The notes beneath the pieces are model-generated. The model saw only the letters and a program-made list of their open reading frames with translations. It searched no databases and was not told where the DNA came from. Below, in pieces: positions 11,614 through 48,739 of a DNA stretch of 64,000 bases; position 1 is the first letter of the stretch, and each line of letters begins with the position of its first letter. The position numbers were made by a program, and so were the translations under genes. The DNA is taken from the NCBI GenBank assembly GCA_973895155.1, contig OZ316894.1, forward strand, positions 681,968-745,967, written 5' to 3'. Origin of the DNA: Marsupella aquatica. Its lineage: Eukaryota > Plantae > Marchantiophyta.

Positions 11614-12015
11614 ATTACACCGGACAAGTAGGGACCGTTGGGTTTAGCATATAGGCATGGGCTTGTGGCAAGACACTTAGAATCTAAAGTAAGGGCTGAC
11701 TAAACCTCAAGGGTTGAGTTCAAACCATCGAGACGGTTTGGAAGCATGAGTTTGAATGTTAAAGGAAGTACATGTCAAATGCATATTGGTGTTATCAAAG
11801 CATGTGTAAACATTGGAACATGGGAGTAGCGGAAATGCAAACCTCATAGGAGCAATGGCAGCATGTGAGGAAGGTCCTCAACTGACATATTGATCTCCAA
11901 TTATGGTGGGGGAAAGATCGAAATACAAAGGTGGGAGGTCCCACAACTGGAGCATAGATCGGCACGCATGGACCATAATGGTGTCATGGGCATAACTCTT
12001 ACCTTGGAAGTTGAG

Positions 12016-23307: not shown

Positions 23308-24179
23308 ATGAACTCAAAAGAGAAAACTATGGAGTGGCAAGTACAAATTATGAGGGAGCTGAGCTTATTGTCATGTCCATGTTGTAGGTTCTCACCAGTG
23401 AATGTTGGAGGTGAAACACTACACTCGGTATGTCATTTATTCCAGACCGCCACACCATATGTAGACTCCTCATACGGGTGGCTACATGGATGTATTTTGT
23501 GGTGGTTTGGCTGGTTGGTTTGGTAATCCGACAATTTGTACCCCCACCTGGCAGAACCATTGTCAACCTTGAATCTGTTGTACAGTATTGTAAGGCAGAT
23601 GAGGAGGAGGTTTACTTTTCGGCAGATGAGTGTGAAGCCGGGTGTGAAGAGGATGATGAGGAATGTAGTAGTTTGCTACATGTTTTGCCATATGATTTAG
23701 TAGTCACAAATGTATGGCCTAGGGTTCTTTCCATGTCATCAGCGCAGGACATTTGCCAATATCGACTCATTAGTACCCAATGGAGGGACTTGGTAGCCAT
23801 GTCCCCACAATGGAAGGCATTGAAACTACTACTTGTAGGCACAGATCGTAGACCACCATGGCATGATCTTGGGTTAGACTTAGATGACTTAATGTACTTG
23901 CCTGAGTACCTGAGGGTTGACTATCATCGAGCACAGGAGTGGTATTTGTACTGATCTGATAAGATTCACAGATCTGATATCACTCTAGTGGAGTGGGTTT
24001 CTATGACTACACACCATTGTATTCTGATATGGTCATGGATGTACATGCAGAGTAGCCTAGAGGTGTGGAGTCCAGTGCTGGTACCATTAGAGTGGAGGAT
24101 TGCAGTATCCAGAGAGCTTGCAGAGGTTGCAAGGTACGTGGGTCCTCTGCATTTTGGCAAATTGAGTGGAAGACATTGA
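23308..24179 (+). pseudogene. CACTA cargo: F-box-like gene with a possible degenerate MBD-like N-terminal region
   Basis: F-box-like segment LLHVLPYDLVVTNVWPRV...ICQYRLISTQWRDLVAMSPQWKAL. The in-frame TGA at 23952-23954 is followed by the same frame to 24179. There is a probable frameshift near 23500. Confidence 0.55.
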
Positions 24180-24206
24180 TTGGATTGACTTGAAGTGCCT
24201 GAAACA

Positions 24207-27200: not shown

Positions 27201-28048
27201 GACGTCAAGCAATGGCCTGTCCTGCTGAATTTGCTTCCATTCCTTTTGGAGTGTGGTTCAGGGATACAATACACAAGGCTAACCTGGATGACAATGAGGA
27301 CAAGTTGTTGTTGACTGCAATTTCTTTTCCACCAAGCCAGAAGGCTTTGTCTTACAATTCAATGAAGGCTTTTGGGAACCATTACAGAGTGATGCGCTGC
27401 AAAGATAGGAATGGTGAATGGCGTGAGATGTCCACTCTCAGGGACACTGATTGTCAAGGATATGCTACATTCAATTCAGGGGTGGCCACAACTTTCCATG
27501 AGCAGATCAGGGAAGAAACTGGAGTGAATTTGGCCAAGCTTACATATGTGGGGGTTATGACACAGATACTTGTGCTTGACTATGGACCTCTGTTACATTC
27601 TGAACCAGCCATAATCTTGAAGGCAAAGTGGGTGCGGTCTAAGTGGGGAGAGCAGAGGTCTAATCCATCAATGAAACATGACGAGACTGGCCTATGGCTT
27701 GCTAATTTTAATATGCCTTATCCCTCAGCTGAGAAATTAGATTATGTCTTGCCCAGTCAGATTGAGCAGGTTTTCTTTTACCCAAACACAGCCAGGGCCT
27801 CTTGGAGACATGTCCTCCATAAGGAAGGGAGGTCTCGACGAGTTGTTGAGGGTATAAATGACCTTGAGTTTAATGATCTTGTGGATCGTCATGAGGCTGT
27901 TGAGGCTGAGCTTGTTGCAGCAGCTAACAGACGAGTGCCCTTGGATGAAGGAGAAATTGTAGTTTTTCAGGAGATGGCAGTGTTGACAAGAAGTGATAGT
28001 GATGATGATGATGTCTGGGAAGATGAAGAAGATTCAGATGAAGAGTGA
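24207..28048 (+). pseudogene. CACTA TnpD-type transposase (3 exons) with one premature stop
   Basis: Motifs: transposase-associated CPCYIC..KHL, LALDGVNPF, YNLPPW, LDPMHTEKN, GLKSHDYH, RWMYPIER. Predicted introns are 25974-26087 and 26993-27117. There is an in-frame TAG at 24720-24722. Confidence 0.93.
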
Positions 28049-28121
28049 GAATGTGCCTCTTGGGGCAGGAAGTACTGATTGCTCTTTGGTGATAGTGTTT
28101 TTTATGCAGTTTTGAATTGAA

Positions 28122-31096
28122 ATGCATGATCGGTCTGGGGTGAAAGGTTCTGAGAATGCCTATGAGGCACAGAGGAATAAGAACATAGCAGCCAACCAAG
28201 CTATACTTGACCAGTTTGTAGGAACTGCTGCAAGAGATTTAAAGTATGTACTCTATCCCTATATAGTTTTGAATTTATGCCTTGACTTTATTACTAATTA
28301 ATGGTTCACACTCATGACATTGCCAGGGTGATTGCAGTTTACAGGGTGAGGCAAGGGTCAAGCGTCTATCTAAGTTGTCAAAGAAGACTGAACAGAATCA
28401 GCCGTCTATAGCAAAGCGTAGGAGTTCACGATTACTTGGCAGGCACCTGGAGAAAATCATGGAGAGTGACAACAGTGGGAGTGATGAGTCTGAAAAATCA
28501 GCTGACACAAATTATGGGGCAGGTTTAAGTGATGATCACGAATCAGATGGTGTTCAAGAGCTACGTAAGGTAAGAGAAGACTCACTATCATTTTCTACTT
28601 CACTTGAAGCTAATTGCATTAATTGTCCAATTTCTGTATATCTCAATCTGGTGCTACTGTTACTAATTACTTGAATGTGCACACTGTTATCCTCAGGCTC
28701 CCCGAAAGTCAGGGCTTAAATATTATGTGGATCCTAGGACAAAGGAAGTGAGTGTGTGTAAGTAATTTATTCATTACCTCACTTGCCATGAACTTGTTTT
28801 TGACTTGCCAAGTGAATCCTGAGTTCAGAGTTCTCACAGTTGCAGATTGATTGTCACAAGTTACATTAATGTTTGACTTGCTAATAGAATCTCTTTGGTT
28901 GGTTGTGGTAGTGACACCCTTGCCTAGAGCATCTGCTCGTGATCTGGATGATGGAATTGTCACAGAAAGATCAGAACAGACACACGTACGACAATCATCT
29001 CGTGCTGCAAAGAAACAATGGGAAGAGAACACAAGCGAGCGTCGCAAGTTGGGCATGAAGAAAGCTGCAATCACTGTATGTTGCTTGTGAAAGATCATGC
29101 TTGTGATTTATTGTTTGTCCTTTGTTATTGGTCTCTTATGATGCATTGTGTGCAGATTTGGAACAATGATGTTGATCCCAATGATCCATATCGGGCACGT
29201 TGGGGAGATGATCTTCGTGCTGTGTGTATGGGTAAACTGAATCCTTCTATCCGTGAGATTAAGAAGCAAGACTCAGGGGTTCTTCTTCATGTTTATGTTG
29301 TGTTGGAGAACGATTGGGCATATGTACAGGGGACTCTGTCAATGAAGAAGTTCAGGTCTCATTGTTCAGCAGTAATGAAAGCACAGCGAGCAAGACTCCA
29401 CAAACATTTTCAGGAAGGTGGAAGACGCTTGGACAAGAAGCCCCCTGAGAATGTGAAGCCTGAACATTGGAAGGCATTGTGTGAGTGGTGGCTGTCTCCA
29501 GAAGGGATGTCTAGCATTGACAAGATGAAGTATGCAAGATCTAAAGTCATTAATCCATCAAGGGTTGGACGAGGTGGCTACCGTGGGAAGGAGTCTGACT
29601 TTGTAAGTATACAAGATTCATTTACAGTTATTATGAATGTTTGTAAACAACAAGTAGGCTTACAGCATGTGTCTTCCTTTGTTTTAGCAATTGGTATGCA
29701 AAGAAGCAAGAAGTTTCATTCTAATATGTATTGTTTGGTTTCATTGCTCAGAAGAGAAAAAGAGGGGAAAGTCCACCTCTGTCTGAGCTACGCTCAAAAG
29801 ATGATAGATTTGGAGTATCAAGTGTGAGATCTGTCACAGGACAGACCACACCATCTCATCGGAGAGGCAGAAAGTCAATTGTGAGTATTAGTTCACAAGT
29901 CCAATTTTTGATTTCCAAATTGCCAAGTCTAGGTGATATCCACTAACTTTTGTATGATTGTTCAATGGTTGCAGACACCAGGTTCCAGGGCTATGATGGG
30001 AGACGAGGAAGGACGTGATGAGCATATGTTGAGTACAATTGTGAATGCAATAAGTACAGGGATGAGTATTGGGTTTAAGCAAATGTTAACTGTTTTGACA
30101 AAACCTAGCCTAAGTCAAGATGTGGAAGAAACCAGAACTGTCCCAGTTGGGCCGGGACAGTCTTCAATGCCCTCACGAATGAGTTCAGTTCCGAAAAGTC
30201 ATTCAGGCCGTAGTACTTCAGCTGTGAAACTAGACTTTTTGGTGGACTTGACCAAAGAAGGTATGTTCTTTATAGAGGACAGTTAAAGTATGTGTAATCA
30301 AGCATGCATGACTTGGATTAGTGAATGTTTTCTAATGTCTTGAAATGTTAATGGGCAGTTGAAGATGATCAGGGGATTGATCTCAATGCTGCTGTGGAAT
30401 ACAATTATGACCCAGTGATTGTGAAGCAAGAGATCAATGAAGAAACAGAGGTGGTATACAGTTCGCCTGCGCAGCATGATCAAGCAGGCAAAGATAAGGT
30501 TGGAATACCATCTAAACCCTAAACTTTGTACTATTAATGTGTTCATTATCCCATGAATTTGTAATGTGAACCTGGTAGGGCATGCTTATGTAAGTTGTCT
30601 CACCCTAATCTATTTTGTAGGAGATAATAGAAGCTTTGACACCTGAAGTTGTTTTGACAAAGTCATCTGAAGAAGCCATTGTTACAGAGTTTTCAAAGTC
30701 GATCCCTTCACCTTTTGTCTTGAAGGTGAGCAAAAGCAAATGATTGCTTTCAATACATGTCCTATTCGTTTATTTGCTGTAACTTGTCATTAACAAGTCT
30801 AAGTAATGAAATGGCTGTGTTATGTTGTTGATGTGTGACAGTTTAAAGTAGGAGACATGGTGAAATTGAAATCACCAGTGGATCAGCAGGTGATTGCTAT
30901 TGCCAGAATCGATGGAGTATGTGGACTTGATCGATATTATGACAACCCAGTTCCTACTGGCTTCTTGATTGTCAAAGCTGTTTCTATTTTGAATGGAGAT
31001 GCACCTCTCCAAGAAAAGCACCCAGAAGGCTTGGTAGCCCTCAAACATGTGAAGGGGCACCCATTTTTGTGGAGGCAGAAGTTAATGAGGAAGTAG
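28122..31096 (+). CDS. CACTA TnpA/Ptta-like multi-exon gene (exon structure not fully resolved)
   Basis: Contains AYEAQRNKNIAANQAIL, a Transposase_24-like segment PPENVKPEHWKALCEWW...SRVGRGGY, and C-terminal VKLKSP...PFLW. Many GT-AG boundaries are visible. Confidence 0.7.
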
Positions 31097-31802
31097 GATT
31101 AGTAATTGAGGAGTAGAGCTTGCAATAGAGAATCCATGTGATTGAAGAAGTATGTAGGTTCCCATATAGGTAGCATGGATACTATTGTGCAACTATGGCT
31201 CTCAGTTTTTGGATTCCCAGATGTGTATCACTCTGGAATTTTGTTGGTGTTTGAAATGATGACTTACTAAGATTGTGTCATTTCTCAAATTTATTTGAAT
31301 GTGTATGTGAGACATTTGAGGTTTTTGCTATTGCTATTTAGGGTTTAGAACTTTAAAACTAATGACTCTACATCTAGTGATTCGACATTCCAATGTACTA
31401 TCATTCAAGTTCTATAGTACACCCAAATCACTACAATTGAAGTGATCAATACTAGATTGTGGCCATACTACTGCAACTATAGTTATCAAAGATATGATGT
31501 TCATCACCCATTTTAAAGTTGTAACGTAGCAATCTATAACACTTAAGATGTAGTCATATAGCAAGTAATAATGGACTGAATGATAGGTCTGTAAATACAG
31601 TCATATATAACAAATAACAAAAGCTTTACAATTACTACTTCAATTTAAGACATATATCAAGAACTAAATTGTAAAATAATATCTTTATTACGTTAAACTT
31701 AGTTATATAGCTGCAAGTACTACATGTGTCTAATATGTCATGTTATCACTTTAAATTTAGTGTCACTACAAGTTGTAAATGTAATTTGGTTATGATTTCA
31801 AT

Positions 31803-32340
31803 TCTAGTCATATAACTAGTATTAAAAGTTGACACAAAGTATCTTTAAGACTCAAAATCTAGTCATATAGTGGCAAGGGCTATATAGTTTCTACTTGAAT
31901 TCTAGTCATGAAATAAGTTATTTGAGGTTCAGGGTGCATTGATCACAATTGACTTTTGGCAATTGTCACCCCCAATGATTCTGGAGACCGCCACATGTTT
32001 AGGTATCATTTGTCAAAAAAAGTCACCATAGTAGTCGTTTTGGGCAAAATTTAATAATTGTTATTTTTCTAGTCATATAACTAGTATTAAAAGTTCGACA
32101 CAAAGTATCTTTAAGACTCAAAATCTAGTCATATAGTGGCAAGGGCTATATAGTTTCTACTTGAATTCTAGTCATGAAAGAAGTTGTTTGAGGTTCAAGG
32201 TGCATTGACCACAATTGACTTTTGGCAAATGTCACCCCCAATGATTGTGGAGACCGCCACATGTCTAAGTATCATTTGTCAAAAAAAGTCACCATAGTAG
32301 TTGTTTTGGGCAAAATTTAAATAACTGTTATTTTTCTAGT
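31803..32340. repeat. 265-bp tandem duplication in the CACTA 3' subterminal region
   Basis: TCTAGTCATATAACTAGTATTAAAAGTT occurs at 31803 and 32068, each followed by near-identical sequence. Confidence 0.88.
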
Positions 32341-32547
32341 TATTTAAGACCGTTGGGTTTGAAACCGACGGTGACATAAACCACTCATACATTTTGAGTA
32401 CTTGTTATAAACGACTTCATGCTCAATACGACTAGTTGTCTAAAGCGACTGACATTAGTGCACTCAAACCATTGAGTTGTAAATTGTCCGTTATCACTCT
32501 GAAACAAGTGAATTAGGTAGTGATAAAATCCCGATTTCCTTCTAGTG

Positions 32548-32906
32548 GTAGTTGGATTGAATTTGACAAGAAGATCCATAAATTTGTTTTAGGAGATAGA
32601 TCTCACCCAGAAGCGAAGGCAATATATACTGAGCTCAATAAATTGACTGAAAACCTGAAGGTTGAAGGCTACATTCCGGATACTCAACTTGCGTTGCATG
32701 ATATGAATGAGAAGGATAAAGACCTAGCTCTTTGCTCTCATAGTGAGAAGTTGGCTATTGCTTACGGACTTATGCACATACCTCAGGGGAAGCCAATTTG
32801 AGTATGGAAGAACCTTCGGGTGTGTTCAGATTGCCATACTGCAACCAAGTTTATCTCTAAGGTGACTGGACACGAGATTGTAGCCAGCGATACCAATCGC
32901 TTTCAC
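32548..32906 (+). pseudogene. PPR-DYW paralog, piece 2 (DYW core)
   Basis: Reads SWIEFDKKIHKFVLGDRSHPE...HSEKLAIAYGL...[13 protein letters not shown]...DTNRFH, with a premature TGA at 32799-32801. Confidence 0.93.
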
Positions 32907-33758
32907 GAGGTTTTTCCCCATGACAGGAAACAGAAAATAGTAACAATCATAACAGGAAAAATAGAGGAACAAAACAGGAGATTTGGTACTAGCATACACA
33001 AAAGATGACATAATTTTGGACAAAAAAGGAGGCCAATTTCAATAGGAACTCCAATATGTTTAGAGTTCTCTACAGTAATTATGGAAAGACAAGTTTTACT
33101 AGCGCCGAGCGCTAACCAAGAGTTTGTTGCCGTTCAAAACAACATTAACAAAATGTCCGTTCAACGTATCGTCGAATGATCAAAATTCCAATAAACCATG
33201 CAGATTCTCCCTTCCTACGATGAACTGGAGTTCTCCGACATTCAAAATTGGCTGGCTGGTAAGACCGAATACATCGGATGAAGCTTAAAGATTGTTTTGT
33301 CAGAGGGCTTTCCATTTGACAGGAACCCGATTCCAGTAACAGGAAACAACCAATTTCAACAATAAAAGAGCCACTAATAGTATTCGCAACATATTTGGAG
33401 GACACAAGAAAAAGAAGAGATGAAAGACACAATTTTATAGAGGCGGGTTTACATAATTGTGGAGGAGAACATAACATATAATAGTAGCGCCAGGCGCTAG
33501 CGACACGCGCTACTTGAAAAAGAAATTACATTGATATCCAGAAGGTAATAAAAGTCCATAACCTTCAAGAAAAAGAAATAACCCTAATAACATACTCAAA
33601 AAACCTAATGCGATAATAAAACGAAAGGAGCAATAAAGCTAACTCGGCCAAACCGGAGCCCCCATTCAAAAAGATGACATGAATCAAACTCATGAACGAC
33701 TCCAACAATGAGATGAAAGCTAGCACCAGGCGCTAGTGTCAAAGAAGAAATCCACTCT

Positions 33759-34229
33759 CTAGGAAGTAGAAGACATGCAGTCGTCGTCCAATCCAGCTTT
33801 GAACCTATCCTCATCCTGTCGAAACCCATCCTCTCGATCCAGAAAAAAATGAGGTCCGGGATAGCGATTCCGACTCCGGTCGTTCGGGATGTTCGAATCT
33901 GAAAAGTTCACACGTCCGGTGTCTGCTTGGATGTCTCTGAAAAAAGCTGTCCTTTCCACCCGATACACATTGGAAGGATCCGGGTCGTGAACAGAGAACC
34001 TCTCTCGGAAAGGAAGTGGAGGCGAAGGATCACGCGATGGAAGGTGTCCAGTTCTGTGGCTAATACCCTCATCCGGGGCCAGCCACAACCTGTTCCTCTC
34101 GGTCGACGTCTCTGGGCACTGCGTAAAAGATGGAGTCAAATCTAAACCCGGATCTCTAATCGACCTCCAAACCATCGCCTTTGGCGGATTGCAGCTCTCC
34201 AATTTTGCTATTTGCTTTCCCTTATCCAT
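33759..34229 (-). CDS. Small MULE cargo ORF of unknown function (starts MDKGKQIAK)
   Basis: Open frame from the ATG at 34229, just downstream of a 39-bp tandem repeat. No domain was recognised. Confidence 0.35.
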   Translation of the reverse strand: MDKGKQIAKLESCNPPKAMVWRSIRDPGLDLTPSFTQCPETSTERNRLWLAPDEGISHRTGHLPSRDPSPPLPFRERFSVHDPDPSNVYRVERTAFFRDIQADTGRVNFSDSNIPNDRSRNRYPGPHFFLDREDGFRQDEDRFKAGLDDDCMSSTS

Positions 34230-34270
34230 TGAGTTGATGGAAACAACGGATGCAAAACTCAGGGAGAAGA

Positions 34271-34387
34271 GAAGAGGTGAGTCCGGGCAGACCAGAAATG
34301 AAACGAAGGGAAGAGGTGAGTCTGGGCAGTGCACAAATGAAACGAAGGGAAGAGGTGAGTCAGCGCCTCACAGAAATGAAAGGGAGA
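34271..34387. repeat. 39-bp tandem repeat, 3 copies
   Basis: GAAGAGGTGAGTC occurs at 34271, 34310 and 34349. Confidence 0.85.
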
Positions 34388-35079
34388 AATGTGTTTAGGG
34401 TTGAACAAACACGAAGTTGAACAATCCCGAAGTTGAACAAACACTACACTTTGAGAGAGTCCAAATGATCATATCAACCACAAACAAAAATATGTACAGA
34501 CTGAAGGTATAATTATTCATCGTACAACTGTATGAGTACATGCATTTCTGATATCTGCACAAATATGCACTCAGGAAAGAGACTCCCGGTGCGTTTATCT
34601 CCTTTAAAGTCTCAGATCCGAACACCCTGTTTAATAGCGTCGGGCGCTAGTACAAGGTTCCAAAGAAAACATTAGAAATTCCCACTCAACCTATTCCAAG
34701 TCAGAAGACTCGGACTCGCTACTGCCAGACCTATCTGTAGACTCAGCTTCATCATCTATAAATTTGCTTCTAGGTCCATCGTTGAGTAAAGGCTGATGGA
34801 TGAATTTCCTATCTGAACCTCTTCTTAACTTAAGCCCTTACTCTCCCAAGTAAGTGTTCTCCTCTGTTCTTCTTTGCGTGCAGCATATTCTGCATACGAG
34901 GGCAACACGAAAGGCTTCTGAGGAGAAACGAGAACTTTTCTCGAGTATTTCCTCCGAAGATTAAAACGTTCTTGAAGATTCCACTCCGATCTGGAAGAGG
35001 AACGGAACCATATTAGAATTGAAAATGAAAATGGGACAGTAACAGAATCGATAATGTAAAGTGAAGTAGCTTACGGGCA

Positions 35080-38000
35080 TTACTCAGAAGAATCCGAATC
35101 TTCTATTTCTTCCGTCGTATGCCTCTCCTTCTCATCCCCTTCATTTTCCTCTCCTTGTCCTCCTGAAGCAGCATCTCCAACAGCATCTCCATCCTCTTCA
35201 TCTTCAGAGTCAAAATTTAAGACAGAGCGAACTTTATCTTTTTGTTTTCTTCCCACATCTTTAGCGGGAGATGAGGAACTGACATCCTTTGGAATCAATA
35301 AATCCATCCATGTCTTTTCCGCAATCTCAACAAACTCTTTTTGGTTTTCTATACCAAGAATAAAACGACCACAATAGTCACCAGCAACAAATGTACTTTC
35401 CGAACCCACAGTCCAGTCCATGACAATGTCACCCGGCCGAGTGATTAACTCTAACACAGATTGCATGAACCCAACGGACAAGCGTCCATTGCCAGCAAAC
35501 GCTGCTGAAGGAGTTGGATCCTTCCTCACACTCGGGAGACCAATAAGGTTAGTGATAGAAGGATCTTCAGTTGCAGAGAGGGGTCGAAACTTGGGGTCCT
35601 TTGGAACCTTAACCTTTGACGAAACACGACTGAATAGATCCAATCTCAATGTGAAAACCTGTGAAATCCCAACAAACTCCATTGTTAAGATGTCGACGAT
35701 CCAACCAGAAAATCATTTAAATCACGGCATAACAATGAATTTTGGATAGCGCCAGGTGCTAACAAAGAATATCCCCTTAATCAAAGGGTATATGAAAACA
35801 TTTTTAGCTAGCGCTTGGCGCTAACAAAGGACAGCACGAAGAGTGAGAGAATTTACCTGGCAATCACTTCGGGCCATGTACATTGGAACTCCCATAACCA
35901 CGTTCAGGGTTTTCACACACTGAAACTTTTGAGACTCCTGGCTCGCGCCGATGACCTGCGAGATCTGATCATACTTGCCGGTATGGAAAATGGCCAATAT
36001 ACCATCATCTGCTAGAAAGGGGTCCATTGCGCAAAAGAATGAACCAACAATTCTGTGATCTGGGGAATTCCATTTTGGAGACTTCTTCTCTAAAAGGGAT
36101 GGGCGCAGTCCAGTTGGGAGGTAAACGAATCCAGCATCAACTCCAAATGATCTTATCTTTCCTCCTCTTATGACTCCTTTCTCCCTTAGACCAAGCAAGA
36201 CTAGGTCTTCACCCACTTCTCCACATTTGACACCCAAGCCGGTTTCTGCTCTTTCATGAACACACTCTCAAAGAAGTCCATTACGCTGGACTCAACAAAA
36301 ACATGCCTAGAAGTCTTAGACTTGAACTGTCCAACATCTCGTTGAACACCAGTAGAAGCGACCGAATCCCGAGAGGAAAATCCATGATCCAAAGATTTCT
36401 TTTTCTTTTTCTTCGTGCTGGTGGCATCTGCAGGTCGCACCATCTTCTCCGTGTTGGGAGGAGTCTGTTCATCAGGGATATCTTGTTCCCCCGTATCAGC
36501 TTCAGAGACTCCAGGAGTGACAGTCGTCTTTGCATCTTGTGTTTCTTCTCCATCCGATTTCCGTCCACCTAGAAAAAGATACAAAAGTTTCCAAGATTAC
36601 GGTCCACATAACACCAGCGTCGGGCGCTAACCAAACTGCCCCAAAAATCAACCGATAAATAGACAACTTGATCTGCAGCGCTCATCAAAAGTCACCGACA
36701 TAATCAAGCTGGTGGAGAGAAAATACAGAATGCCAATGGAAAATAACACCAGCGCCGGGCGCTAACCAAACTGCACAAAAATCAAGCAATAAAGGGACAC
36801 CAACATCTGTGGCGCTAAACAAAAAGTCACCTAAATATCCAAACTAGTGAAGGGAAAATACGGAATGCCAATGAAAAATAGAAGAATCTCACGTTTCTTC
36901 CCGGATCTCGTTGATGGGCTGGTTACTCCAGTGTCTACTTTTGCTTTCGCCCGGGGTTTTCGACTCCTGTCTACATGCAAAACTTCTGTTTCGCAATGTT
37001 TCTGCAGCTCGCTCACCGAGGCATCTACATCTTTCGATAAACCTTGTTTCATTTTAGAGAGAACTTTTCAAGGCACTAAAGACTTTGATAATTTCAGAAA
37101 TGCATCCTTTTCAGCTTCATCGAAAGGGGTGTCCCACTTATCTATGTCAAGATACCATGGACAGTGGGTTATCTCCCACAATGAAATGTCACGTGGTGGA
37201 ACGTCCCCTTCGGCAGGGTGCATTGAGTAAACTTCGCTAGAAGCATCCCCCTCTAGAACGGACCATTTCTGGAATGCAGGAGGGTAAGCCCAAAAATACT
37301 CTGGAGAACTGGTCTCCATCGCCATGTAGAAGCGATACAGATATCTCTTGGCTCGCTTCTGGTTGCGAATGGTATAGTCTTCCTTGTCTCCGTACTTGGA
37401 CTGCCAAATTGTGCTAAAAAACTTCGCCTTCACTGTTTCACCGTATGTCTTGAAATCATTGGTGATGTTCAAGACCAAAGCTTCAAATGTCTCCACTCCT
37501 CCTAGCGTCAGACGATCAGCAGGTAGGATCGACTGGACTTGCGAAAGAGATGTCTGTAACATTGCAATTGCAATTCCTTCCACCAAACTCCACATGTGCC
37601 ATGTATGACACCACTGTTTAACAGGGTCATCATTCACACTCGGGGGATGGTAAAATTGTTTTTTGAGCTTGGGTGTACAGTGAGCGACAAGAAGAGTACA
37701 GCGCAGTTGTGGATCCAAGTAGGAGACAGCAGTGAATAGACGCGCGCGGTCCATTGTACATACTACAGAGTCCGGCTTCTTTTCTCGTTTCTTCCTCTCC
37801 GTAAGAATGTACATTTCTGCACAAGTTGACAGAAAATCACCAAACTCTGGGCTTATCAGGGGGTAATCTTGGATGTCTTTATGCTCCACTCCTTCGTTGC
37901 CTCCTTCATCATGGCAGCATACCGCTTACCAGTCTCTTCAGATGACCACGGGCGACCTTGACTTGTCGCAACAGCCAAGTCAAGCTTAAATTGAAGTGAA

Positions 38001-39040
38001 TACGACTTAATCTTGTTTTCACACAAGATGTAAACCAATGCTTCCAATGGCATCTGCTTGGTATACCAAGACCCCTTTCTTGTTTTGGCACGAATAGTTT
38101 GAAATCGCTTGAAGCTTCCGGGGTCGATGATCGGCTTGTAGGCCTCCAAGTCATGAGTTAAAATCCGATTGATTCTATCAGCATCGAGAATCCACAATGG
38201 TTCCACCACAGCTTGCCCTAACCTGTAAGATATAATGGCAAATATTAGCGCCTGGCGCTAACTAACCTTGCAAAAATCAAGCGCAATTGACCGAATTCAA
38301 TAGCGTTTATGCAACTTGAGGAATACTTACTGGTTCACCATGTGCATAGCCGCTTCAAGCTCAACTAGAGAACCTCGATCTCCCTTAAAAACAGTGCATT
38401 GAACACGCGGATGGTACTTGATATTGTCTGGATTCTCATTTGTTACTTGGGTCCACGAGTAGAGTCGATGATTCCCGTCAAAAACACAGAACATCTTATC
38501 CTTCAGAATGTGGAAATCTGGATCAGTAGCACATTCTGCTTCAAACAAGTCGTTCTGGGCAACCCAAACAGCATCCCAGGTCTCCCGAATTTCAGGCGTG
38601 CAGAATTGAACAACTCCTTCTGAATCCGTGGGCTGGACGTAAAACCGCATCCCAATTGAAGAGTTGTACCCAGAGCTCCGAAACGAATCCTTGAGCTTAT
38701 CGATAGATGCACTATTTTTCTGTAAGGTCCAAACGATTTCCATGTGAACAAGCCGACAAAGAGGGATACGCGGCGGCTCTTTCTTCTCCCCTCTGAAATC
38801 GACTCCAAACGACATTGCATATTTCTCGATCACAGCATCCATGGACAAGACTTCCTCGCCCCCGTCCTCCATCGCAAAATCTCCGTATGACTCCATGATG
38901 CCTCGTTTTGGCTTTGGAATCGCCTGACTAATGTTTCGCAAAGAGTTCGACGCAGACGAACGAGTGACTCTCCGAGTATAAACTAATCCGGAGAATGAGG
39001 ACTCGGATGTTTCAGAATGGCCAGGAGAATGATTCTCCAT
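35080..39040 (-). pseudogene. MULE cargo: spliced gene encoding an N-terminal ParB/Srx-like domain and a C-terminal beta-class N4C/N6A DNA-methyltransferase fold
   Basis: ParB-like motif VFDGNHR. MTase-like motifs VDAGFVYLPTG...FLADDGILAIF and LELITRPGDIVMDWTVGSESTFVAGDYCGRFILGIE. Phase-compatible introns at 38330-38223, 36892-36569 and 35856-35659. One stop (37068) and about two frameshifts in this copy. Confidence 0.75.
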
Positions 39041-40274
39041 GTTTGTTTAAGATGCACACACATGGGGAACCCGCACTGCAACGTGCTTCTTGCGTGATGC
39101 AACGTTTCTTGTGGTGCTATACCGATATGGACGAATGATTGACAACGATCCTAAACGTGCGCAGAGGTCGTTCTAACGAGCAAGGAAGACACTATCGCGA
39201 AAAGATCTTATCTGATATACCCTGTGGCAGACCAACATGTATCACAAGTACACATCGAAAAGCACGAGCATCCAAAAGTAGACCTACTAAAGGTTGACAC
39301 TTGTCACATTTTAACTAGTTTATAGGTACTCGTGAATATATTTATCCAGGAATTCGTTATAAATTGTAACGATAAACGGTCAAAGTTACCGTTTAAAAAG
39401 ACCGTTTATGTCAGTATTCTACTTTGATCTAATATTAGCGCCTGGCGCTATTATTATGCTAGACTAAAATATATCTTAAAATGAAAGATTTTAATAATAG
39501 TGCCTGGCGCTAGTAACATTGTACTAAAAAATCATGCAAATGATTGGACTGAAGTGAGAAAGATTTTGTAATAAACGGCTTCTATTTCTATAAAGTTTAT
39601 GAAAGTGCCAGGCGCTATTTTTCTTTTAGTCTCAAATAGGGCTCAAATGTGTAGATTTCAATAATAGCGCCCGACGCTAGTAACGAGACACCTCAAAATG
39701 GTAGATGTTTGGACAAAAAATGTGTAAGTTTCTATAAATAATGTACGAGTACATCTTGACATTTTTATGAATTTTATGATAGCGCCTGGCGCTATTATTA
39801 TGATAGCTTCTACTCGATCTCAAATGGATCGATTTTAATATTAGCAGAGGGTAATATTGTCGTCTGACATAAATAAGGGTCTATTTCCAAGGAAACCCGA
39901 TATATTTCCAAGGAAACCCGATACCTGTCGTAGGATGTTAACCTGTGTGAGTAACCAAAATGGCCAATGATCTTTGCTTTTGTTGTTCATTTTTTGGGCT
40001 CTTTCAGATGTGGAAAATGCTAGCGCCTGGCGCTACTATATTACCCCTTTGGTTACAACGTCAAAACCATTAATTCAACAGTAACTATCCGCTGAATTGA
40101 TGGTTTTGTCATTTCTTGAACGGTAAGAAAATCCGTACCCAACGGATCCTATAACCGCTCGACGGCTCTTTCCGTTTGAGACTTGGATTTAGAAGAAACC
40201 CTCAACCATACAAACTAGCTTCATTTTACCATGTATCATTATTTTATGTAGTCGGTTATCTTTGGGGAGTTAGA

Positions 40275-43200
40275 ATGTCTCGCATTATTGGAATAATGTG
40301 TCCGAATACAGGTGACGTTGTGATGATCCCTGTGTTGATTTCCGAAACCAAGAAACGTGTTAGTGATAATTACCTGTGTGGAAGATTTGGGGTGACGAGA
40401 AAACATATTTTGAGTATCAGAACTTTGAACGATGGGCCCGCTCATTTTGATACTGAAGCGGAGGACGTTGTTTGGAATCTCAAATATGGCGTGGAGTACT
40501 TGATTTTCATTCAACTAAGGGACATCGTTCATGTCAAGGTGGAGACGCATCAGGTCGCTCACGATGTGATTGACCTTACGTCCGACGCTGAATGCTCTGA
40601 GGGTTCTCCACCAATCTCAAAGGGTGGTGAGGTCAATAAGGAGGGCGGAAGTACCAGTTTGTTGATGCCCCAGATACCCCCCGTATTGATTGCGTCGGAG
40701 GAGTCTGATGATGGAGACACTCTAACTCGTCCTGTTCTGGTTGTGTACAGAAGAAGCGCACTTGATGCCTTGTTGAAGTCAACTGGACAAAGTGAGTTAT
40801 CGCGCTTTGTTAGGTCCGAGGCATTCATTCACAAACAGGTTGAATGCTTACCTGTAGAGTACAATGGGAATACCATATTTGAGCTTCCACCTGTTGAAGG
40901 TGTTGGCTCGAAAGGGGATCGTCTGCGAAACATGGATTGATGCAAGGACTGCTACCTCTGGACTAGAATCCTTCCTACTTCTGCTAATGTCGTTCCGAAG
41001 AAGATGTGGGAGTTTGGGAAAGTAAGTTGTAGTGGTTCTCTCGAATGCCGAAATAGAGCATGTGAGTTTTACACCAGGACTCAAGTCAGAAACTGTAATG
41101 GATGGGATGGGACCCCCAAGCTCTCTGGTCAGCATTGTCCTGGGAGGTTTATCGATGCTGGAGGAATTGTTTGTCGCTATTGCCTTCAAGTTCCATTTTG
41201 TGTTGAGTCTTGTCCAGCAAAAATGTTTTATATGTACCCGCAAGTTTTGATCGAAAATGACACTGCAAAACACATGTCACGACTTGCAATCCATATGGGA
41301 GTGCACAACCATCCATGTCGGAAGGTCTGGTCTAGAAGTGCTGAGAAAATAGCAATAGAAGAAATACGGAGACAGCATAAGAAGTCTCCTTCTTCTACAC
41401 CGTGCGTTTTGAAAAATGAGATCACTGGATCTTTAATGGATGCCGTAGGTGAGTCTGTGGATGACATTTCAAAGCTAGAAGAATCAGAAATCTGGAAATC
41501 ACTTATGCTCGTTTCAACGCCTCAGAAGTTTTCTGCGTTATTTAAGAGCGTTCGCAAAGATCAGGTTGGTCGAGGTGATTTGGAATATCTGGTTCGCATG
41601 CAGAAGAATGTTACGTTTCCTTTTCTCCAAAGATATCTTCTTCCTGGGCAGGGCTGTAAAGGTGATAGAGCGCATATTTTCAAAATGACTATCAAAGGTC
41701 ATGGATCGGGAGTAGATTTATTGCGTCAGATGAAGAAAGGGGGGCCTCTACAAGGAGCATGGGTGAGCTTTGACATGATGAAAAGGATGTCGAAAGAATG
41801 GAGTACTTTTAGTGCACATGTGTATGACCATAACTATCGAGCTTTGTGCACAATATTTACTTGTGAACTCAAAGCAGAGGACACTGCATCGCTTGAGAAA
41901 GCTTGGAGGTTGATGATCGAAGTCGCTTTGGAGAACGGTTTAAACGGTGTGGAAATCCATGGTTTCATGGCGGATAATGCTCAGGCGGGATGGATAGCGG
42001 TTAGGAATGTCTTCTTTGACGGCCATCCAAACCCGGAGAGAGAGCGATCGGATGCATTCCACTTTTATCAGTCTTTGCATCGGCACTCTATCGAAGGAGT
42101 ACTTGAAGAAAAACGTGTTGAACATTGAATCCTTTGGGACAAGTTGCGGAATGCCGCTTCATTTGTGGAAGCCTACAGGGTATCACGAGAGATTGATTCA
42201 TGGTGGAGATCTGGAAATTGTATTCCTGGGAAACTTAGAATGTTGCAAGGATGGATCGCTTGGTGGGTTGTGAGGTGGCGTCAGTGGGGAAATTTCATAC
42301 GTTTGGTGAGTCAATGTATACTAGCGCCTGGCGCTAGTATTAATATCCCTTTTCTAATTGTGATATTTACCGATGTTTTTGCCAGCGCCGGGCGCTAACG
42401 TACAAATAGCTTGATAGCTTCTTCAATCTTCACAATCATCATGAAAACATTCATACCTTTCGTCCGCCCATTTTGAAGTTCTACTTTTTTTATTTGATAT
42501 ATTGTACTGAATTTGACAAAACTCTTTTTCAGAGCAAAAGTGCACTTGAAGGGGGGATGATTCCCAATTGCACTGGTTCTGAAGCTGTTCACGGAATCAT
42601 GAAAGCATGGCAGGGAAAGAAAACAGTTGGTTTGTTCGAAGGATGTAAGACCGATCACAACAGAGCAATCTCACAAATAGCAGCCTATACAGCATATCGT
42701 GAAGGGCTCCATCAGGGTACCCGTCCAACAGTGTTTGAATTGGCTTTTCGTTCGGCTGACCAAGCAGGGTCCCCGAAACTCTTCGAAGAAGCCTCTAATA
42801 TGTTACTCGCAAATGCAGCAGAATTTGATTTGGAGAGGGATTCTCCGTTGAATGGGGATTTTGTGACAAAGTCTATGAAAAGAAAAGGTCCAACGACCGG
42901 GAATGTCTCTCCACAAGACTCCCATCGACATGACACGGTTCTCATAACTATGCCAAACACCCAAGGTTGCAAGAGGAGAAATTTGACCTCAGCCGAGTTT
43001 GAGCACATTCTGATACTTGGAACTCCTCCTTCGAATCCAGTTATCGATTTGTCTGAAAGTGGCTCTCCAGTTTCCCATCATGTCACTCAATCTTCCGAAG
43101 TTCCAGAAAGTGTTCCGAACACCACTCCATTCATTCTTGTAGACACTTCGCTTTTTGAAGAGGACGTTGTACCCAGGTCGTGGCATTTGCGGAGAGTTTC

Positions 43201-44026
43201 CAGACACGGTGCTGGACCACAGTGTAATGGGACGTTGTCTGGAAGTTGTGATCGAGATGAGTGTCGTAATTGAATTAAGAAGGTCGGATATCCTTCAAAT
43301 GCAGGGGTTGTCGGAATAGTCGTCAAAGGTTACCGCTTATTCAGAGGTGAACACCATCCAGAGCTTGTTTGGTTCTGCCCCACTCGTGATTGCTGGAAGA
43401 GCCACCCTCGTCGAGGTATTGTGAACCTCCCTACTTGCCCAAACTTTTTGCCAGTACAGAAAGGCACTCATCTTTCAAGTCTGGAGTTGAATTTCCTTCA
43501 CGAGCAGGGCATTGAAGTCTCGAGAGGAGGTGCTGTTTCACGTTGTCCTTCTCCATTTGAACTGAGAATCAACATTGACGTTTTCCCTGAAAAGATCGAT
43601 CTTGCACAAGTCAACATCCATTTTCAAACGAGAAACGGGCATGCGATGAGCTCCAGATCAAATCTCACTCAGGAATATCATAAAAGGATTGAATCAGCAA
43701 CAAAAGAAACAATGACTTTGATCAAAACTATGGAAGTTTCATCGGGAAATTCATACCAAAAACGATTCCAGATACGCACACATGCACATTTATGAACTGC
43801 AAATACTTACTGGGTGCAGATTTGCATTTTCCCTTGTTGCTCTTGTGAAGATTTCTTTCGTCGACATTCTCGAGGGAAACCTTTCATGCCATGTAAACAC
43901 TTGTATTGGGTTTACAAAGTTATCTGCAAGCTTGATCTTGTGGACAATATCCTCCCAAGCCAACCGATTCTTACCATTGCGGAACTACATTATATTCTAG
44001 CAAGGCAGAATGCTTATGGTTTATAG
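40275..44026 (+). pseudogene. Mutator-type DDE transposase with GCM/WRKY-like zinc region and C-terminal SWIM
   Basis: Motifs: CSGSLECRNRAC...HMGVHNHP; VSFDMMKR...FMADNAQA...DAFHFYQS...GSEAVHG; SWIM CSCEDF...PCKHLYWVY. Intron at about 42306-42532. In-frame TGAs at 40938, 42126 and 43271, and a frameshift near 43790. Confidence 0.82.
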
Positions 44027-44672
44027 GAAGGCTTAGTATTCTAGTTTACGGTCAACGGGTATGTAGGACTTGTCGTTTCGTAACGGTAACTTTGTTTTAG
44101 TTAGCGCCCGGCGCTAGTAAACAACATTTGGTTTCTTTTCAACACGGCTCAATGTTTTGTGGGTTGCTCAAAACGCTTAATTTGTTTTTACAATTTTACG
44201 GATGTGTAATTTTCATTGTACGGGTAACAGAGATTTCTTTGTATTCAATCGTCACTTGGACTTCAGTTTTGTTAGCGCCCGGCGCTAGACTTCATTTCCT
44301 TACTTGGTTTCAGTTTGTAGTTTCCAGGTCTGAACGTGTGGATTTCTTTCGCATGCATTCTCAAGGATGACCTTTTCTTGCCTTAGAAACCGTTATCCTC
44401 TGATCATTCCGGTAGATGGTGTGCGGGTATTTTGTTAATGATATTTTTTAACGGTATCAAACGCTTGGTTAGGACTAAGCGCTAGTAAAGGCATCTTCCG
44501 ATAATTGTCGTTTTCCCCATCTTTTTGAGTTGATGTTGAATTTTACCTCTTTGGTTTGGTCCAAAATTAAGCCGTTTTTTGTCAATGATAGTACCAATTC
44601 TCCTGTTTTGTTCAACTATTTTTCCTGCTATGATCATCACTGTTTCCTGTTTCCTGTCACGGAGGTCGGGCC

Positions 44673-44723
44673 CGCTTTCACCATTTCAAAGATGGGATAT
44701 GTTCTTGTGGCGATTACTGGTGA
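44673..44723 (+). pseudogene. PPR-DYW paralog, piece 3 (C-terminus)
   Basis: Reads RFHHFKDGICSCGDYW*. The downstream CCAGATTGAAAG...GAAAGTGAC matches the 3' flank of the intact gene. Confidence 0.93.
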
Positions 44724-47700
44724 CCAGATTGAAAGTTGGTTTGAAAGTGACATGAAAGAAGAACTCACTCATCCCCATTTGTCCTTATGTTCCAATCTGT
44801 CTTGTTCAAGAAATGAGTGATGAAGCATGCTTCATTAGACAGATTCGCCAAACAGAGATGATCCCTCTAAATTCACACTATATCAAGGTCAAGTGAAAAA
44901 TAATTTATGCACATATAGAGTAAATTTTGAAAAGATTCCAATAGGCAGATGGGAGAGGGGATACATACAAAGGAACCCTACTCGTCCATTAATTTCAAAA
45001 GAATGTCGCAAGTGGCAGCATTATTTGCATTGGTTTTTCTGACCAGTGGTCCTAATTTGAAGGCTCTATAAGAACCTAATGTCTTGCTAAATATGTGATA
45101 ATTGTTACAACCCAAGGTTGAGTCTACCATTAACCTGGGTTAAACCTCCTCCTTTAAGTAGTTACCCTAACATCCTTAGTAACTACTGTGATGCCTAGCC
45201 AGGAATCACTAGGCCAGTTTAAATAGTAAAATCAGGAGTGTACCCTGGAAACACATTAGTATGGTAACAAAAAACTGGAAAATATAAACAATTAAGGGTG
45301 ACTATGGAACCCGAGCCGAGGCCGGAAGTAAGGACGCTGGGGGAGGGAACACGATTAGGGTTAGGGCGCGCTAAGTGTCAGCGGTTATGGGTAACCAACA
45401 GGAAGGAAGACCAGACAAGGGGGGGTAAGGACCGATCGCAAGGAATGGTGGCTCATTTGCAAGCACGAACTAAGCAGATGACTATGGGAGGCCAACTACT
45501 GTCAGCTGCTTAGGCAAGCACTCAGGGTGGGAGCAGATACCGACTATCAACTCAAGAAGGGTATGAGCAACGTCAATCAAGCTGATCATTTTTGTGGATG
45601 CCTGTTCGAACGGGCAACTGAGTACATTGGGACCTACAAAGATGAAGAATTTGAGAGAGCAGCTCGAGAACGGCAGGAGCTCGCTCGACTGTGGGAGCTG
45701 CAGAAGTCTGCCTTCTTAGGAGGAGAACTCATCAACGCTGAATTCTTGTGGACACCGACTGGCAACAAACTAGACGACCTTCTGTTTTGCGAGAACAAAA
45801 TCATCGGCATCCGAGAAGCCATCAACTGCTGCAACAACATACATTGGGAGTTGAAGGGTAGCACGGAGGGGTGGATAAAGGCAACCGTGCTGGGAGAAAC
45901 ATCCACGGCAGCCGCTATGAAGAGGAAAGGGAACAGCAACGAAGAGGCCACCCCTGTGAAAAGAACGAGGTCGACGGCACCCAAGAAGCCAGCAGAGTAG
46001 GGAAGCAGGAGGCAGGGAGAAGCCGAAGAAGAGGAGGTCATTCCAACAAGAGATGACACCTAGAAAGGCTGGGCGGCGACCCTTCCCAAGGAAGTGCAAC
46101 TACACTTTGCACGTGAAGAGGATGCATGCTTTACGGCTATGCAGACTCGGAAGTACCAGGGTTTCATAACCGGATCCGGCTTGGAAGCCTTCGTGAAATT
46201 ACCATGGCTGAAACCGGAGGTGCCGGATTCAGACTTACTAGAATTTGTGGGATCATGGGAGCCCGAGACCAATTGGGTGTATGGGAAGGATTTCTATCTC
46301 ACTCCCCGGGTGATTGCCAAAGCGTTTGGCTTGCCAATGGGCAATAAGACCAAAGTAGATACCAGGAAGACCTTGCCAGACAAGGAGTTCCGGTCGTTCC
46401 CAGGGCCATCAACGAAGAATGGCTTCTTCCGAAACACCTACACCAACCCGCACATCGGAGAAATGATCGATTTCTTGCGGGTGACCATGCATTGCAACTT
46501 GCCAAGGCTAGAGATCGGCAAGGCACAGGTCTACGTGGCGGAGAGGCCAAACCCAAGCCGGGACTACAACGGGTACCTCCTCACCCAACTGAAGAAGATC
46601 TCGAAGGAGGAACAGCAGGTGATCGGCATGGGAAGCGTGTCTCAGCTTGGCTATCACATGCCGCTGTTGTGCCGGTATGCCCGAAGTCAAATCTTTGCCC
46701 CGGTACTTCCCCTGCAGGCAAGGGCACCAGAATAGGTTTCGGAACAGAGGCCAGCAGCAGAGAAACCCAACCAGCCCGACAGTCCTACAATCGAGCAGGT
46801 GTTTAGGCCAAGGACGAAAGACTTGCCGATGCAGCAACCAGGCATGCAGAATTTGCTGAAATTGCTGGAGAAGGAAAAGAGAACGGCAACGACACCGATA
46901 CATAACACTGCTCCAGAAGTCGGCCTAAGCCGACTTACAAGGGAAAACCCCTTTATCGGAGCCAAGCAGAGAAGGAGGCCGGAACACGAGCCGGGGGTTT
47001 GAATGTATGTGGGATCAAGCCCCGAATCTGAGGCAGAGCAGCCTAAAGCTCCTATTCACGGTAAACAGAGGGAGAAGACAGCCTGGAAGCCAGAGGAGGA
47101 ACCAGGACCCGTGAGCTATGAGGCCGTGTTCACGGCAAGACCAGGGGAGCAGCAGGGGGAGCAGGTAGTCCAAGCCGTGGAGGAGGCGGTGGAGGACTAC
47201 GGCAATGATAACTCCGGCTACGGGTCAGACCATCATGTTCCAGGAGTAAGGACCTGTGGCCGGTTTATCCCCACTCTTCCAGCAGTAGTTCGAGGGGACC
47301 CCACCCAGCAGAGCAGCCCCAAGTCTCCCCCACCAGATGTCACTCCCCCGAGCTTTGACGGAATAAACAGACGGCACAGGAATTTCAGGAGCAACTCAGG
47401 GAGGAAGAGAAGGCAGCCCTGGCTAGGGAGAAAGATTTACAAGGAGGAGAATGGCCAGAGGACATCAGACGGCTTGCAGAAAAATGAAGCAACCCTCCAG
47501 CCACGATAGAAGAAATCTGAAAGGTGGCTTGGGAAGAAAGGCCGTGGTGGTTGATGCCGATGACTTCTACTCACTCCACCTATATGCTAAAGAAAGAGCC
47601 ATGGAGTACGGGGAGATGTGTGGGGAACTTGCGCTCAACATCTTTGGGGAGGAGTTGGAGCAGGGACCCTTTTTCCAGAGGGAGATATTGGAAAAATGCC

Positions 47701-48739
47701 GATTAGAAGAAGTGGTGGCTTTGGAGAGAAGCAAGAAGGACGAGGTCATCCGATGGCTTAGGGTGAAGGTAGCCGAGGCAGAGGACCAGAAGGCGGCCAA
47801 GAAAGCCCAATATGAGCTACAAATTAAGCGGCATGAGCTAAACATCATGCAGGGGCAATTGGATACCGCTCAGTCTGATAATCGGATTATCAAGGATAAA
47901 CTGACTCGGACCCAAGGAGAGTTGGCCGATGCGGTCAAGGAAAGGGAAAAGTGGAAGCAGGAGCTGAGGGGCGTAGAGGAGGCCCACATAGCCGCCAACA
48001 GCCAGGCCATGGCGGAGACCCAGAGAAGGGAGAGGGCGTTGAAGGGGGAGCTCGAGGATATCCGCGGAGCCCTTGAGCAAAAGGAGGCCAAGTTAGGGAA
48101 ATCCTATCAAGGGATTATTGTGCTGCAGCAGGAGCTTGCATCCCTGTCGGCCGGCTTCAAGCCGCAGTATTTAAGTGCTTGGCTTCATCAGGTCCAACTC
48201 CAATTGGGGCAACCAAGTTGCCAGGAGTAGTACTGGCCGAAGGACAAGCCGCGACACTCACACCGGTGCCGGAAGTAAGTGGCAAGGGGAAGGGACCAGC
48301 TGCCGAACCAGGGAAGAAGAAGAAGCGGAAACCTTCTGGGTCAGGGAGTAATGCGGCTTCTCAAGCCGTCATGACCAAGGAGGTAAACCCATCACCAACC
48401 TCAGGCAGGGTCACGACAAAGGATCCAACTGCCTTAGAAGGCGGGGATGGCAAAGCCAAGGCCAGGACACTCAGTGATGAAGCCGGGGTACCGGATCCAC
48501 CACTAGAGCATGTCGGGGAGGCCGTAGCCGTATTAGGGGCCATGGCTGATGCTGAGGCCGAAGCCGATGCTGGACCCAGTCAGGCCACGGGTAAGTTGAC
48601 TGGGTCTGGGGCAGGTAATCTGTCAGAGGACAGACCTACGGCAGTGGCTGCGAAGGAAGCGTTGGGGGCGTCCATTGAGGACCAGCCACCACTGCCATGA
48701 CGGTGGTGGGGGGCCGCTCCTTTTAAGGAGGGCGGACAT

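Follow-up and report, generated by a model that had tools for sequence, protein, structure and literature searches.

The window analysed here, a 64-kb stretch of contig OZ316894.1 from the liverwort Marsupella aquatica, contains a Mutator-like element (MULE) with two genes placed head-to-head: a transposase and a cargo gene. The predicted cargo product joins a ParB/Srx-like N-terminal domain to a C-terminal domain resembling the bacterial amino-methyltransferases. We find that the catalytic motif of the C-terminal domain is eroded across its whole family, and that the non-coding parts of the element are dotted with a 15-bp palindrome. Coordinates of all features are collected in Table 1.

The element was assigned to the MULEs by its ends, because no library model matched the transposase. 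MULEs are described as having target-site duplications (TSDs) of 8-11 bp and long terminal inverted repeats (TIRs) (PMC6446971). Here, the TSD is 11 bp long with one mismatch, as checked against an uninterrupted paralogue, and the ~265-bp TIRs (32918-33182 and 44662-44401) align over 268 columns at 73% identity (E 1e-35). The insertion target is the DYW domain of a PPR-DYW pseudogene. Its intact paralogue (5010-8816) has the insertion site once, and the residues just before the element recur just after it. This copy is an example of such an element inserted into an RNA-editing (PPR-DYW) gene. The transposase (ATG at 40275, plus strand) is dead, with four premature TGA codons in total; Pfam and NCBIfam returned no match to it, and a search of PDB sequences returned nothing credible. 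Its D...D...DAFH...E and CxC...CxH patterns were picked out by eye and presumably correspond to the MULE DDE and SWIM pattern. An earlier, sequence-only reading of this DNA had placed the cargo gene inside the TIRs and divergent from the transposase, and the ends and start codon found here agree with that arrangement.

The cargo gene (39040-35080, minus strand) has four exons and a spliced length of 3331 nt (~1110 codons). Its three phase-compatible introns, of 108, 324 and 198 nt, all have GT...AG borders. The sequence-only reading had joined five minus-strand open reading frame (ORF) pieces into one gene of roughly 1100 codons with three such introns. The strand, the introns and the single gene hold, but the piece count does not: the four exons are spread over seven open pieces because of frameshifts near 37860 and near 36210 and a TGA at 37068-37070. 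These lesions and the dead transposase also bear out the view that the copy is decayed. We note that all three intron lengths are multiples of three, with a chance of about 1 in 27.

The exons are tied together by their relatives. Exon 1 has six protein relatives at 44-76% identity and four metagenome loci. In all four loci exon 1 ends at the identical codon with a GTAAGT donor, and all six protein matches reach that same point, four stopping there and two reading on. In one of the loci, L003, the post-intron exon matches 119 residues of exon 2 (E 3e-14), and the match continues weakly past the first frameshift (score 32 vs 24-25 for the other frames). The predicted Calypogeia protein P0022 matches exon 2 in its distal part (E 8e-7; score 82 vs a shuffle maximum of 53, n=2000) and matches exons 3-4 as well, tying distal exon 2 to them. 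Further downstream, P0001 bridges the second frameshift, with 52% and 78% identity on its two sides, and the predicted Calypogeia proteins P0002 and P0003 cross the intron-3 junction uninterrupted. Judged from these overlapping relatives, the predicted exons form one spliced gene. The L003 and P0022 matches also show that its middle region, ~440 residues, is conserved. Among 30 proteins looked up by organism, those that carry a name are from Calypogeia fissa (five) and Riccia sorocarpa (one). A more distant relative (L004, 479-1620) has extra introns after exon 1, and its introns are very T-rich. At the other end of the gene, a GT-AG pair (35074-34991) is followed by an in-frame continuation to 34690 on the minus strand, ending in an acidic FIDDEA-type stretch; a fifth exon (35074-34690) is possible if the stop at 35080 reflects decay, and no relative supports it.

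For the C-terminal domain, the Pfam model N6_N4_Mtase (PF01555) scores 31.3 bits on exon 4 against a cut-off of 26.7, over profile positions 166-221 only, and the methyltransferase part has 81 protein relatives at E<=0.001. The family profile matches DpnA, CcrM and MboIIA through motifs X-I-II (hhalign 97% over 64 columns). Motif IV is placed N-terminally via the Riccia protein P0036, which has DPPT, matches the Pfam model over profile positions 2-212 and aligns with exon 3 in tblastn (E 8e-7). With motifs X-I-II at the C-terminus, the order is motif IV - target recognition domain - motif I, that of the beta class. The sequence-only reading had named this class, and the motifs that it quoted are all present in the order it gave. 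A phage tblastn search with the Riccia protein returned only weak DNA-methylase matches, the best listed at E 0.03.

Conservation of the motifs was tallied in 75 family proteins, six canonical prokaryote-type enzymes of the 81 being excluded, and each motif was counted in those rows that cover it (33 for motif IV, 46 for motif I and 40 for motif II). The canonical motif IV, (D/N/S)-P-P-(Y/F/W), occurs in 0/33 rows. Position 2 is Leu in 28, no row has an aromatic residue at position 4, and the Marsupella copy reads YLPT. Motif I retains its Asp in 40/46 rows and its two Gly residues in 34/46 and 38/46, with the Phe replaced and an adjacent Trp in 36/46, and motif II is acidic (Glu/Asp) in 38/40. 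Because motif IV is eroded across the whole family, decay of this copy is rejected as an explanation for its odd form. The initial description of both motifs as divergent applies family-wide to motif IV; the residues of motif I are mostly kept in the family, and the loss of its second Gly is particular to the Marsupella copy.

In beta-class enzymes, the first residue of motif IV is assigned to proton abstraction and the aromatic fourth residue to base stacking (PMC7544214). By these roles, the family has lost the residues for both steps but retains most of the side that binds S-adenosylmethionine (SAM), a pattern shared with the eroded motifs of METTL14 and MTA9. In the transposon DIRS1, too, inactive N6A methyltransferase domains have been noted (PMC4738411). 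The methyltransferase-like domain is therefore probably non-catalytic, a possibility that the sequence-only reading had also raised.

An active writer with a non-canonical site, or an inactive heterodimer half with an active partner, depositing N4-methylcytosine (4mC) or N6-methyladenine (6mA) on or near the palindrome, appears improbable. Such a writer would fit the conserved motif I and II residues and the DPP kept by the Riccia member. Beta-class enzymes are described as dimers with a division of labour (PMC7544214), and the authors of a study on Ectocarpus predict a writer for their own transposon-borne protein (PMC12477816). However, the first residue and the aromatic fourth residue of motif IV are never both present in the 33 rows, the motif I Phe is replaced, and no gene for an active partner was found in the element. 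A 4mC writer of the Marchantia or bdelloid type, which had been raised as a precedent, is unlikely given the missing SPPY/DPPY motif, and membership of the Marchantia DN4MT1 writer type was rejected on the same ground.

Exon 1 encodes the N-terminal domain. FDGNH is invariant in 11/11 exon-1 sequences, GNHR is present in 10/11, and an upstream Arg is conserved in 9/11, being Trp (TGG) in the Marsupella copy. This Arg and an L..F...GY segment stand upstream of GNHR in the order expected for Box I and, judged by eye, may correspond to ParB Box I. Box II of the ParB CTPases is given as a GxxR phosphate-binding motif (PMC12704722), which exon 1 has as GNHR. From this motif pattern, ParB/Srx ancestry of the N-terminal domain seems likely. 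The sequence is constrained at the protein level, with a proportion of nonsynonymous differences (pN) of 0.28-0.49 vs a saturated synonymous proportion (pS) of 0.77-0.95 in 10/10 pairs.

The origin of the fusion may be less direct than the sequence-only reading had it. That reading derived the fusion from prokaryotes, but two scans of GTDB genomes confirmed 0/7 and 0/31 pattern matches and gave no close prokaryotic relative, and the top Atlas clusters for exon 1 are fungal DUF3723 clusters (score 0.94-0.96; PF12520 on 14-71% of members). No Pfam DUF3723 match was found on any piece scanned. Sequence searches of the PDB with exon 1 gave nothing credible, a phage tblastn search gave nothing below E 0.9, and two viral-contig loci (L005 and L006, one weak locus each, the latter a 14-residue match) were set aside as chance. 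Predicted structure models have predicted local distance difference test (pLDDT) values of 31 and 49, too poor to judge the fold. Fusions of ParB with N6/N4 methyltransferases are reported to be frequent in phages (PMC12704722), and a prokaryotic origin is therefore plausible but remote.

The best clue to mechanism is the palindrome array, which the sequence-only reading had missed. The palindrome, TAGCGCC-N-GGCGCTA (15 bp, core CCNGG), has 20 matches at <=2 mismatches where 0.03 are expected, and the largest count in 100 shuffles was 1. All 20 lie within the element and none in the remaining 52 kb of the window. Although coding sequence makes up 62% of the element, 0/20 palindromes fall in it; the nominal P of ~1e-8 overstates this exclusion, because duplication gave rise to some of the palindromes. 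At least one palindrome is present in each intron of the two genes (three in the cargo gene, one in the transposase), the stretch between the start codons has six, and each TIR has one ~190 bp from its end, the right one degenerate. Four pairs stand 61-62 bp apart (~six helical turns), on two unrelated spacer sequences. At some sites the palindromes were multiplied by duplicated units of 135 bp and 167 bp. The CCNGG core would also suit a writer, since some bacterial N4C methyltransferases act on CCNGG or CCWGG. A candidate second short motif resembling AACGGT, which includes the palindrome TAAACGGT-N7-ACCGTTTA, occurs at 39373-39410, ahead of the cargo gene, and at 33124 and 44082, close to the two ends.

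Two relatives of the cargo gene come with a palindrome of their own. Intron 1 of the metagenome locus L002 (883-999) has two copies of a different palindrome, ATCTCGGC-N7-GCCGAGAT, and L003 (743-763) has one near copy of it; the L002 and L003 proteins are mutually closest in the set. This difference bears on what binds the sites. The palindromes could serve the transposase as binding sites through which its own copies are activated or paired; the cargo protein would then have another target or no sequence preference. One palindrome in each TIR suits this explanation, as does a report that a MULE transposase alone activates cognate copies sequence-specifically (bioRxiv 10.64898/2026.08.24.746577). 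But none of the sites is terminal, most occupy internal, intronic positions as far as ~5 kb from either end, and a different cargo-gene lineage has a different palindrome, so that we regard transposase sites as a quite improbable account.

The sites could also be by-products of local duplication around a gene that is inert captured cargo. The duplicated 135-bp and 167-bp units and the death of the Marsupella copy fit such an origin. Yet the protein is conserved at saturated synonymous divergence, intron positions are conserved, and the sites are strictly excluded from exons and stand in unrelated flanking sequence. We reject inert cargo on these grounds as largely refuted and give it very little credence.

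The element has also kept its CpG dinucleotides. With the palindromes masked, the observed/expected CpG ratio in the element is 0.78 and peaks at 1.01 at 38-40 kb, around the shared promoter, vs 0.25-0.33 in the neighbouring CACTA element, 0.19 in Copia and 0.66-0.74 in the PPR gene. At inner palindrome positions, 9/11 changes are C-to-T or G-to-A, which is consistent with later host methylation of the dead copy.

From the motifs, the array and the CpG retention, our tentatively preferred reading is that the cargo protein may be a self-targeting, non-catalytic anti-silencing module that would dock on the element's own palindromes. Its steps may be laid out as follows: (I) the N-terminal domain would adopt a ParB/Srx nucleotide-binding fold, (II) a dimer would recognise the two-fold palindrome, probably via the middle region, (III) the protein would load at the intronic and shared-promoter sites and, in the manner of the bacterial VirB and KorB, spread along the element, (IV) the methyltransferase-like domain would keep a pocket for SAM or S-adenosylhomocysteine (SAH) and, like METTL14 or MTA9, engage DNA as a scaffold or reader, not as a writer, and (V) the outcome would be a VANC-like anti-silencing of cognate copies, placing the element beyond the reach of host methylation.

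Several observations weigh against this anti-silencing module. For the N-terminal domain, the TIGR03187 (DGQHR) profile matches 3/11 exon-1 sequences weakly (best E 0.0022), PHROG 1033 (ParB-like) matches 4/11, again weakly (best E 0.047), and Pfam matches 0/11. In the Atlas, exon 1 has a recognition value of 2191, below the 2300 mark, and a ParB_N cluster ranks 27th (0.90). The ParB-like N-terminus of the sequence-only reading stands on its conserved DGNHR motif and on these profile matches, which are weak but converge. In the middle region, Pfam and NCBIfam scans returned no helix-turn-helix or other DNA-binding domain. The motif-IV half scores 16.9 against bacterial methyltransferases, a value reached by 1/20 column-shuffled controls, with LPTG aligned to DPPY; the assignment of this half leans on the DPPT member from Riccia, because its direct profile score is not above shuffles. 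No full-length intact fused relative was found among 467 and 6823 candidates, which is weak evidence. The transposase alone could be the palindrome binder, and the swap of palindromes between lineages rests on two short loci, the DNA examined of L001 and L004 matching neither palindrome. CpG retention is not unique to the element: a block at 46-54 kb has 0.57-0.77, and equal retention would be expected of a family that is young or was imported recently. Finally, the copy decayed by C-to-T and G-to-A changes, and any protection was therefore not lasting.

A bolder version of the anti-silencing module, which we hold to be somewhat unlikely, is a nucleotide-gated ParB-type sliding clamp in a land-plant nucleus. 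It would load at intronic parS-like palindromes and spread, its SAM-binding pseudo-methyltransferase would block host cytosine methylation, and protein and palindrome would change together between lineages. If true, this clamp would add to VANC a second anti-silencing system of its type, one that evolved independently and from prokaryotic parts. The anti-silencing module in general, if true, would show a ParB-type switch at work on the chromatin of a eukaryote and a family of pseudo-methyltransferases turned against host silencing, and could provide a site-specific tool to keep transgenes unmethylated.

The protein may instead bind the palindromes in a mechanical or repressive role, bridging or compacting the 12-kb element for end pairing, tethering excised copies, or damping the divergent promoter like KorB. 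KorB belongs to the ParB-family clamps, which are reportedly able to silence at long range. The phased pairs 61-62 bp apart, the sites near both ends and the six between the start codons would all serve such roles; CpG retention and the retention of the methyltransferase-like domain, however, are left unexplained, and we consider these roles unlikely, though less so than an active writer. A candidate protein and an exact candidate site are in hand in a land plant, with named liverwort relatives, and the question is therefore directly testable.

Table 1. Features of the Mutator-like element and its insertion site, in window coordinates
Feature	Position	Strand	Description
Whole Mutator-like element	32909..44672		11,764 bp, ends GG...CC; TIR alignment and TSD scan; uninterrupted paralogue joins both flanks near 5050
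Left target-site duplication	32898..32908	+	11 bp; one mismatch vs right copy
Right target-site duplication	44673..44683	+	11 bp
Left terminal inverted repeat	32909..33182	+	TIR alignment
Right terminal inverted repeat	44401..44672	-	TIR alignment
Host target, DYW domain of PPR-DYW pseudogene	32550..32908, resuming 44673-44723	+	78% and 88% amino acid identity to intact paralogue 5010-8816
Cargo exon 1	38331..39040	-	ParB/Srx-like domain (VFDGNHR)
Cargo intron 1	38223..38330	-	108 nt; one palindrome
Cargo exon 2	36893..38222	-	conserved middle region; frameshift near 37860, TGA 37068-37070
Cargo intron 2	36569..36892	-	324 nt; 135-bp duplication carrying two palindromes
Cargo exon 3	35857..36568	-	basic/acidic linker, then methyltransferase-like N-half (eroded motif IV, YLPTG); frameshift near 36210
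Cargo intron 3	35659..35856	-	198 nt; two palindromes 62 bp apart
Cargo exon 4	35080..35658	-	methyltransferase motifs X-I-II and acidic tail
Shared spacer between divergent genes	39041..40274	.	six palindromes; highest CpG retention
Transposase exon 1	40275..42305	+	Cys/His-rich segment and first two acidic residues, DDE-like core (by eye); two premature TGA
Transposase intron	42306..42532	+	227 nt; two palindromes 61 bp apart
Transposase exon 2	42533..44026	+	putative catalytic Glu and SWIM-like CxC...CxH (by eye); two premature TGA
156-codon ORF inside element	33759..34229	-	no library match, no relative among fetched proteins
Palindrome sites	33100..44287		33100, 33485, 33498 (overlapping partial), 33721, 34635, 35747, 35809, 36615, 36750, 38246
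Palindrome sites, continued			39436, 39498, 39603, 39665, 39780, 40021, 42322, 42383, 44102, 44273; degenerate mate 44470

Within the element, the 156-codon ORF is preceded by 39-bp and 16-bp tandem repeats and is possibly a third gene. The interrupted PPR-DYW pseudogene (13016-13399, 32550-32908 and 44673-44723, plus strand) is split by a 19-kb block of other repeats as well as by the Mutator-like element. Its paralogue at 5010-8816, on the minus strand, is an open frame of 1269 codons. It has E, E+ and DYW motifs, and a 303-bp (101-codon) repeat occurs in it eight times in near-identical form, which suggests a recent internal expansion. Elsewhere, the window holds Copia fragments at 1-2900 (RVT_2 on the plus strand, gag on the minus strand), G-rich TTTAGGG-like repeats at 12000-13250 with a 667-bp duplication and a part inverted relative to the PPR repeats, and a tandem unit of 560-705 bp in four copies at 14400-17170. 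A decayed CACTA/EnSpm element (Transposase_21, DUF4218, PHD-variant finger) spans ~22000-32350 on the plus strand and is strongly CpG-depleted. A GC-rich unit of 3.5 kb is present twice at 45200-53550, in inverted copies that are 83-92% alike and carry coiled-coil ORFs of no clear Pfam family; the ends touch further inverted pieces at 57900-58500. An open 675-codon frame at 54431-56455 (plus strand) has no Pfam match.

The closest counterpart by architecture is Sola1-1_Ec32 of the brown alga Ectocarpus, described as encoding a 1104-aa protein with ParB-like and N4/N6 methyltransferase domains opposite the transposase; for its authors it exemplifies a proposed class of self-modifying accessory proteins, with further reports from green and red algae (PMC12477816). 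Like that protein, the Marsupella cargo is ~1100 aa long, pairs ParB-like and N4/N6 methyltransferase-like domains, and lies antisense to the transposase in a DNA transposon. The carrier, however, is Mutator-like and not Sola, the host is a land plant, and the likeness is one of architecture, not of sequence comparison. The Ectocarpus protein is a predicted writer that would bind and modify its own element, whereas the Marsupella family has lost motif IV. No palindrome array is noted for Sola1-1_Ec32 in the accessible text of PMC12477816.

In red algal Plavaka elements, the ParB-like PAG3 is described beside inverted-repeat arrays proposed to be its binding sites, and the PAG2/PAG3 accessory genes are said to occur on Chondrus Mutator elements as well (bioRxiv 10.1101/2025.02.11.637652). 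Both systems combine a ParB-like protein on a DNA transposon with inverted repeats, and a PF01555 methylase is part of the PAG cassette. There, however, ParB is fused to a 2-oxoglutarate (2OG) oxygenase, the methylase is a separate gene and the repeats stand in tandem beside the gene, whereas the Marsupella sites are dispersed through introns. In the accessible text of the Ectocarpus and Bostrychia papers, the algal ParB-type accessory proteins are described as predictions only.

According to the Bostrychia paper, binding and modification of an element's own sequence are known from no transposon other than VANDAL (bioRxiv 10.1101/2025.02.11.637652). The motifs that its VANC21 binds are reported to lie in the introns of the same MULE and in its intergenic and terminal non-coding stretches (PMC5735166). 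VANDAL in Arabidopsis is likewise a MULE with an extra gene and element-specific non-coding motifs multiplied by local duplication. VANC, however, is a DUF1985/DUF287 protein with non-palindromic 8-9-mers, whereas the Marsupella protein is unrelated and its candidate site is a 15-bp palindrome; no DUF1985/DUF287 Pfam match was found on any piece scanned.

Among bacterial systems, VirB is described as a ParB-type anti-silencer that loads and slides (PMC10770331). The Marsupella cargo resembles ParB-parS, VirB-virS, KorB and the phage fusions in its GxxR box and palindromic sites, and its domain pairing is that of the phage proteins. Unlike bacterial ParB, it is spliced and nuclear, with ~60 extra residues before the DGNHR strand, no recognised helix-turn-helix, no ParA and no close prokaryotic relative found.

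The bdelloid N4CMT is reportedly a bacterial-type amino-methyltransferase in a eukaryote, and the Marsupella domain resembles it and DN4MT1 in this respect, DN4MT1 being found in a liverwort. Marchantia DN4MT1 is described as a host gene with TSPPY and a demonstrated 4mC role (bioRxiv 10.1101/2021.02.12.428880). The Marsupella family, unlike DN4MT1, is transposon cargo with a ParB-like domain and without TSPPY. DUF3723 is reported as a conserved cargo of fungal Starships (bioRxiv 10.1101/2021.12.13.472469); the Atlas clusters nearest to exon 1 would thus be mobile-element cargo too, a lead only, with no Pfam match.

In sum, the architecture and the self-marking hypothesis are already published for algal transposons, and the Marsupella element is not a new kind; to this extent the sequence-only reading overstated its novelty. 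Literature searches aimed at the ParB and methyltransferase architecture, which covered subscription papers poorly, found no land-plant Mutator version in print. New here are the land-plant Mutator-like carrier, the family-wide catalytic erosion with conservation of the SAM side, and the dispersed candidate binding site.

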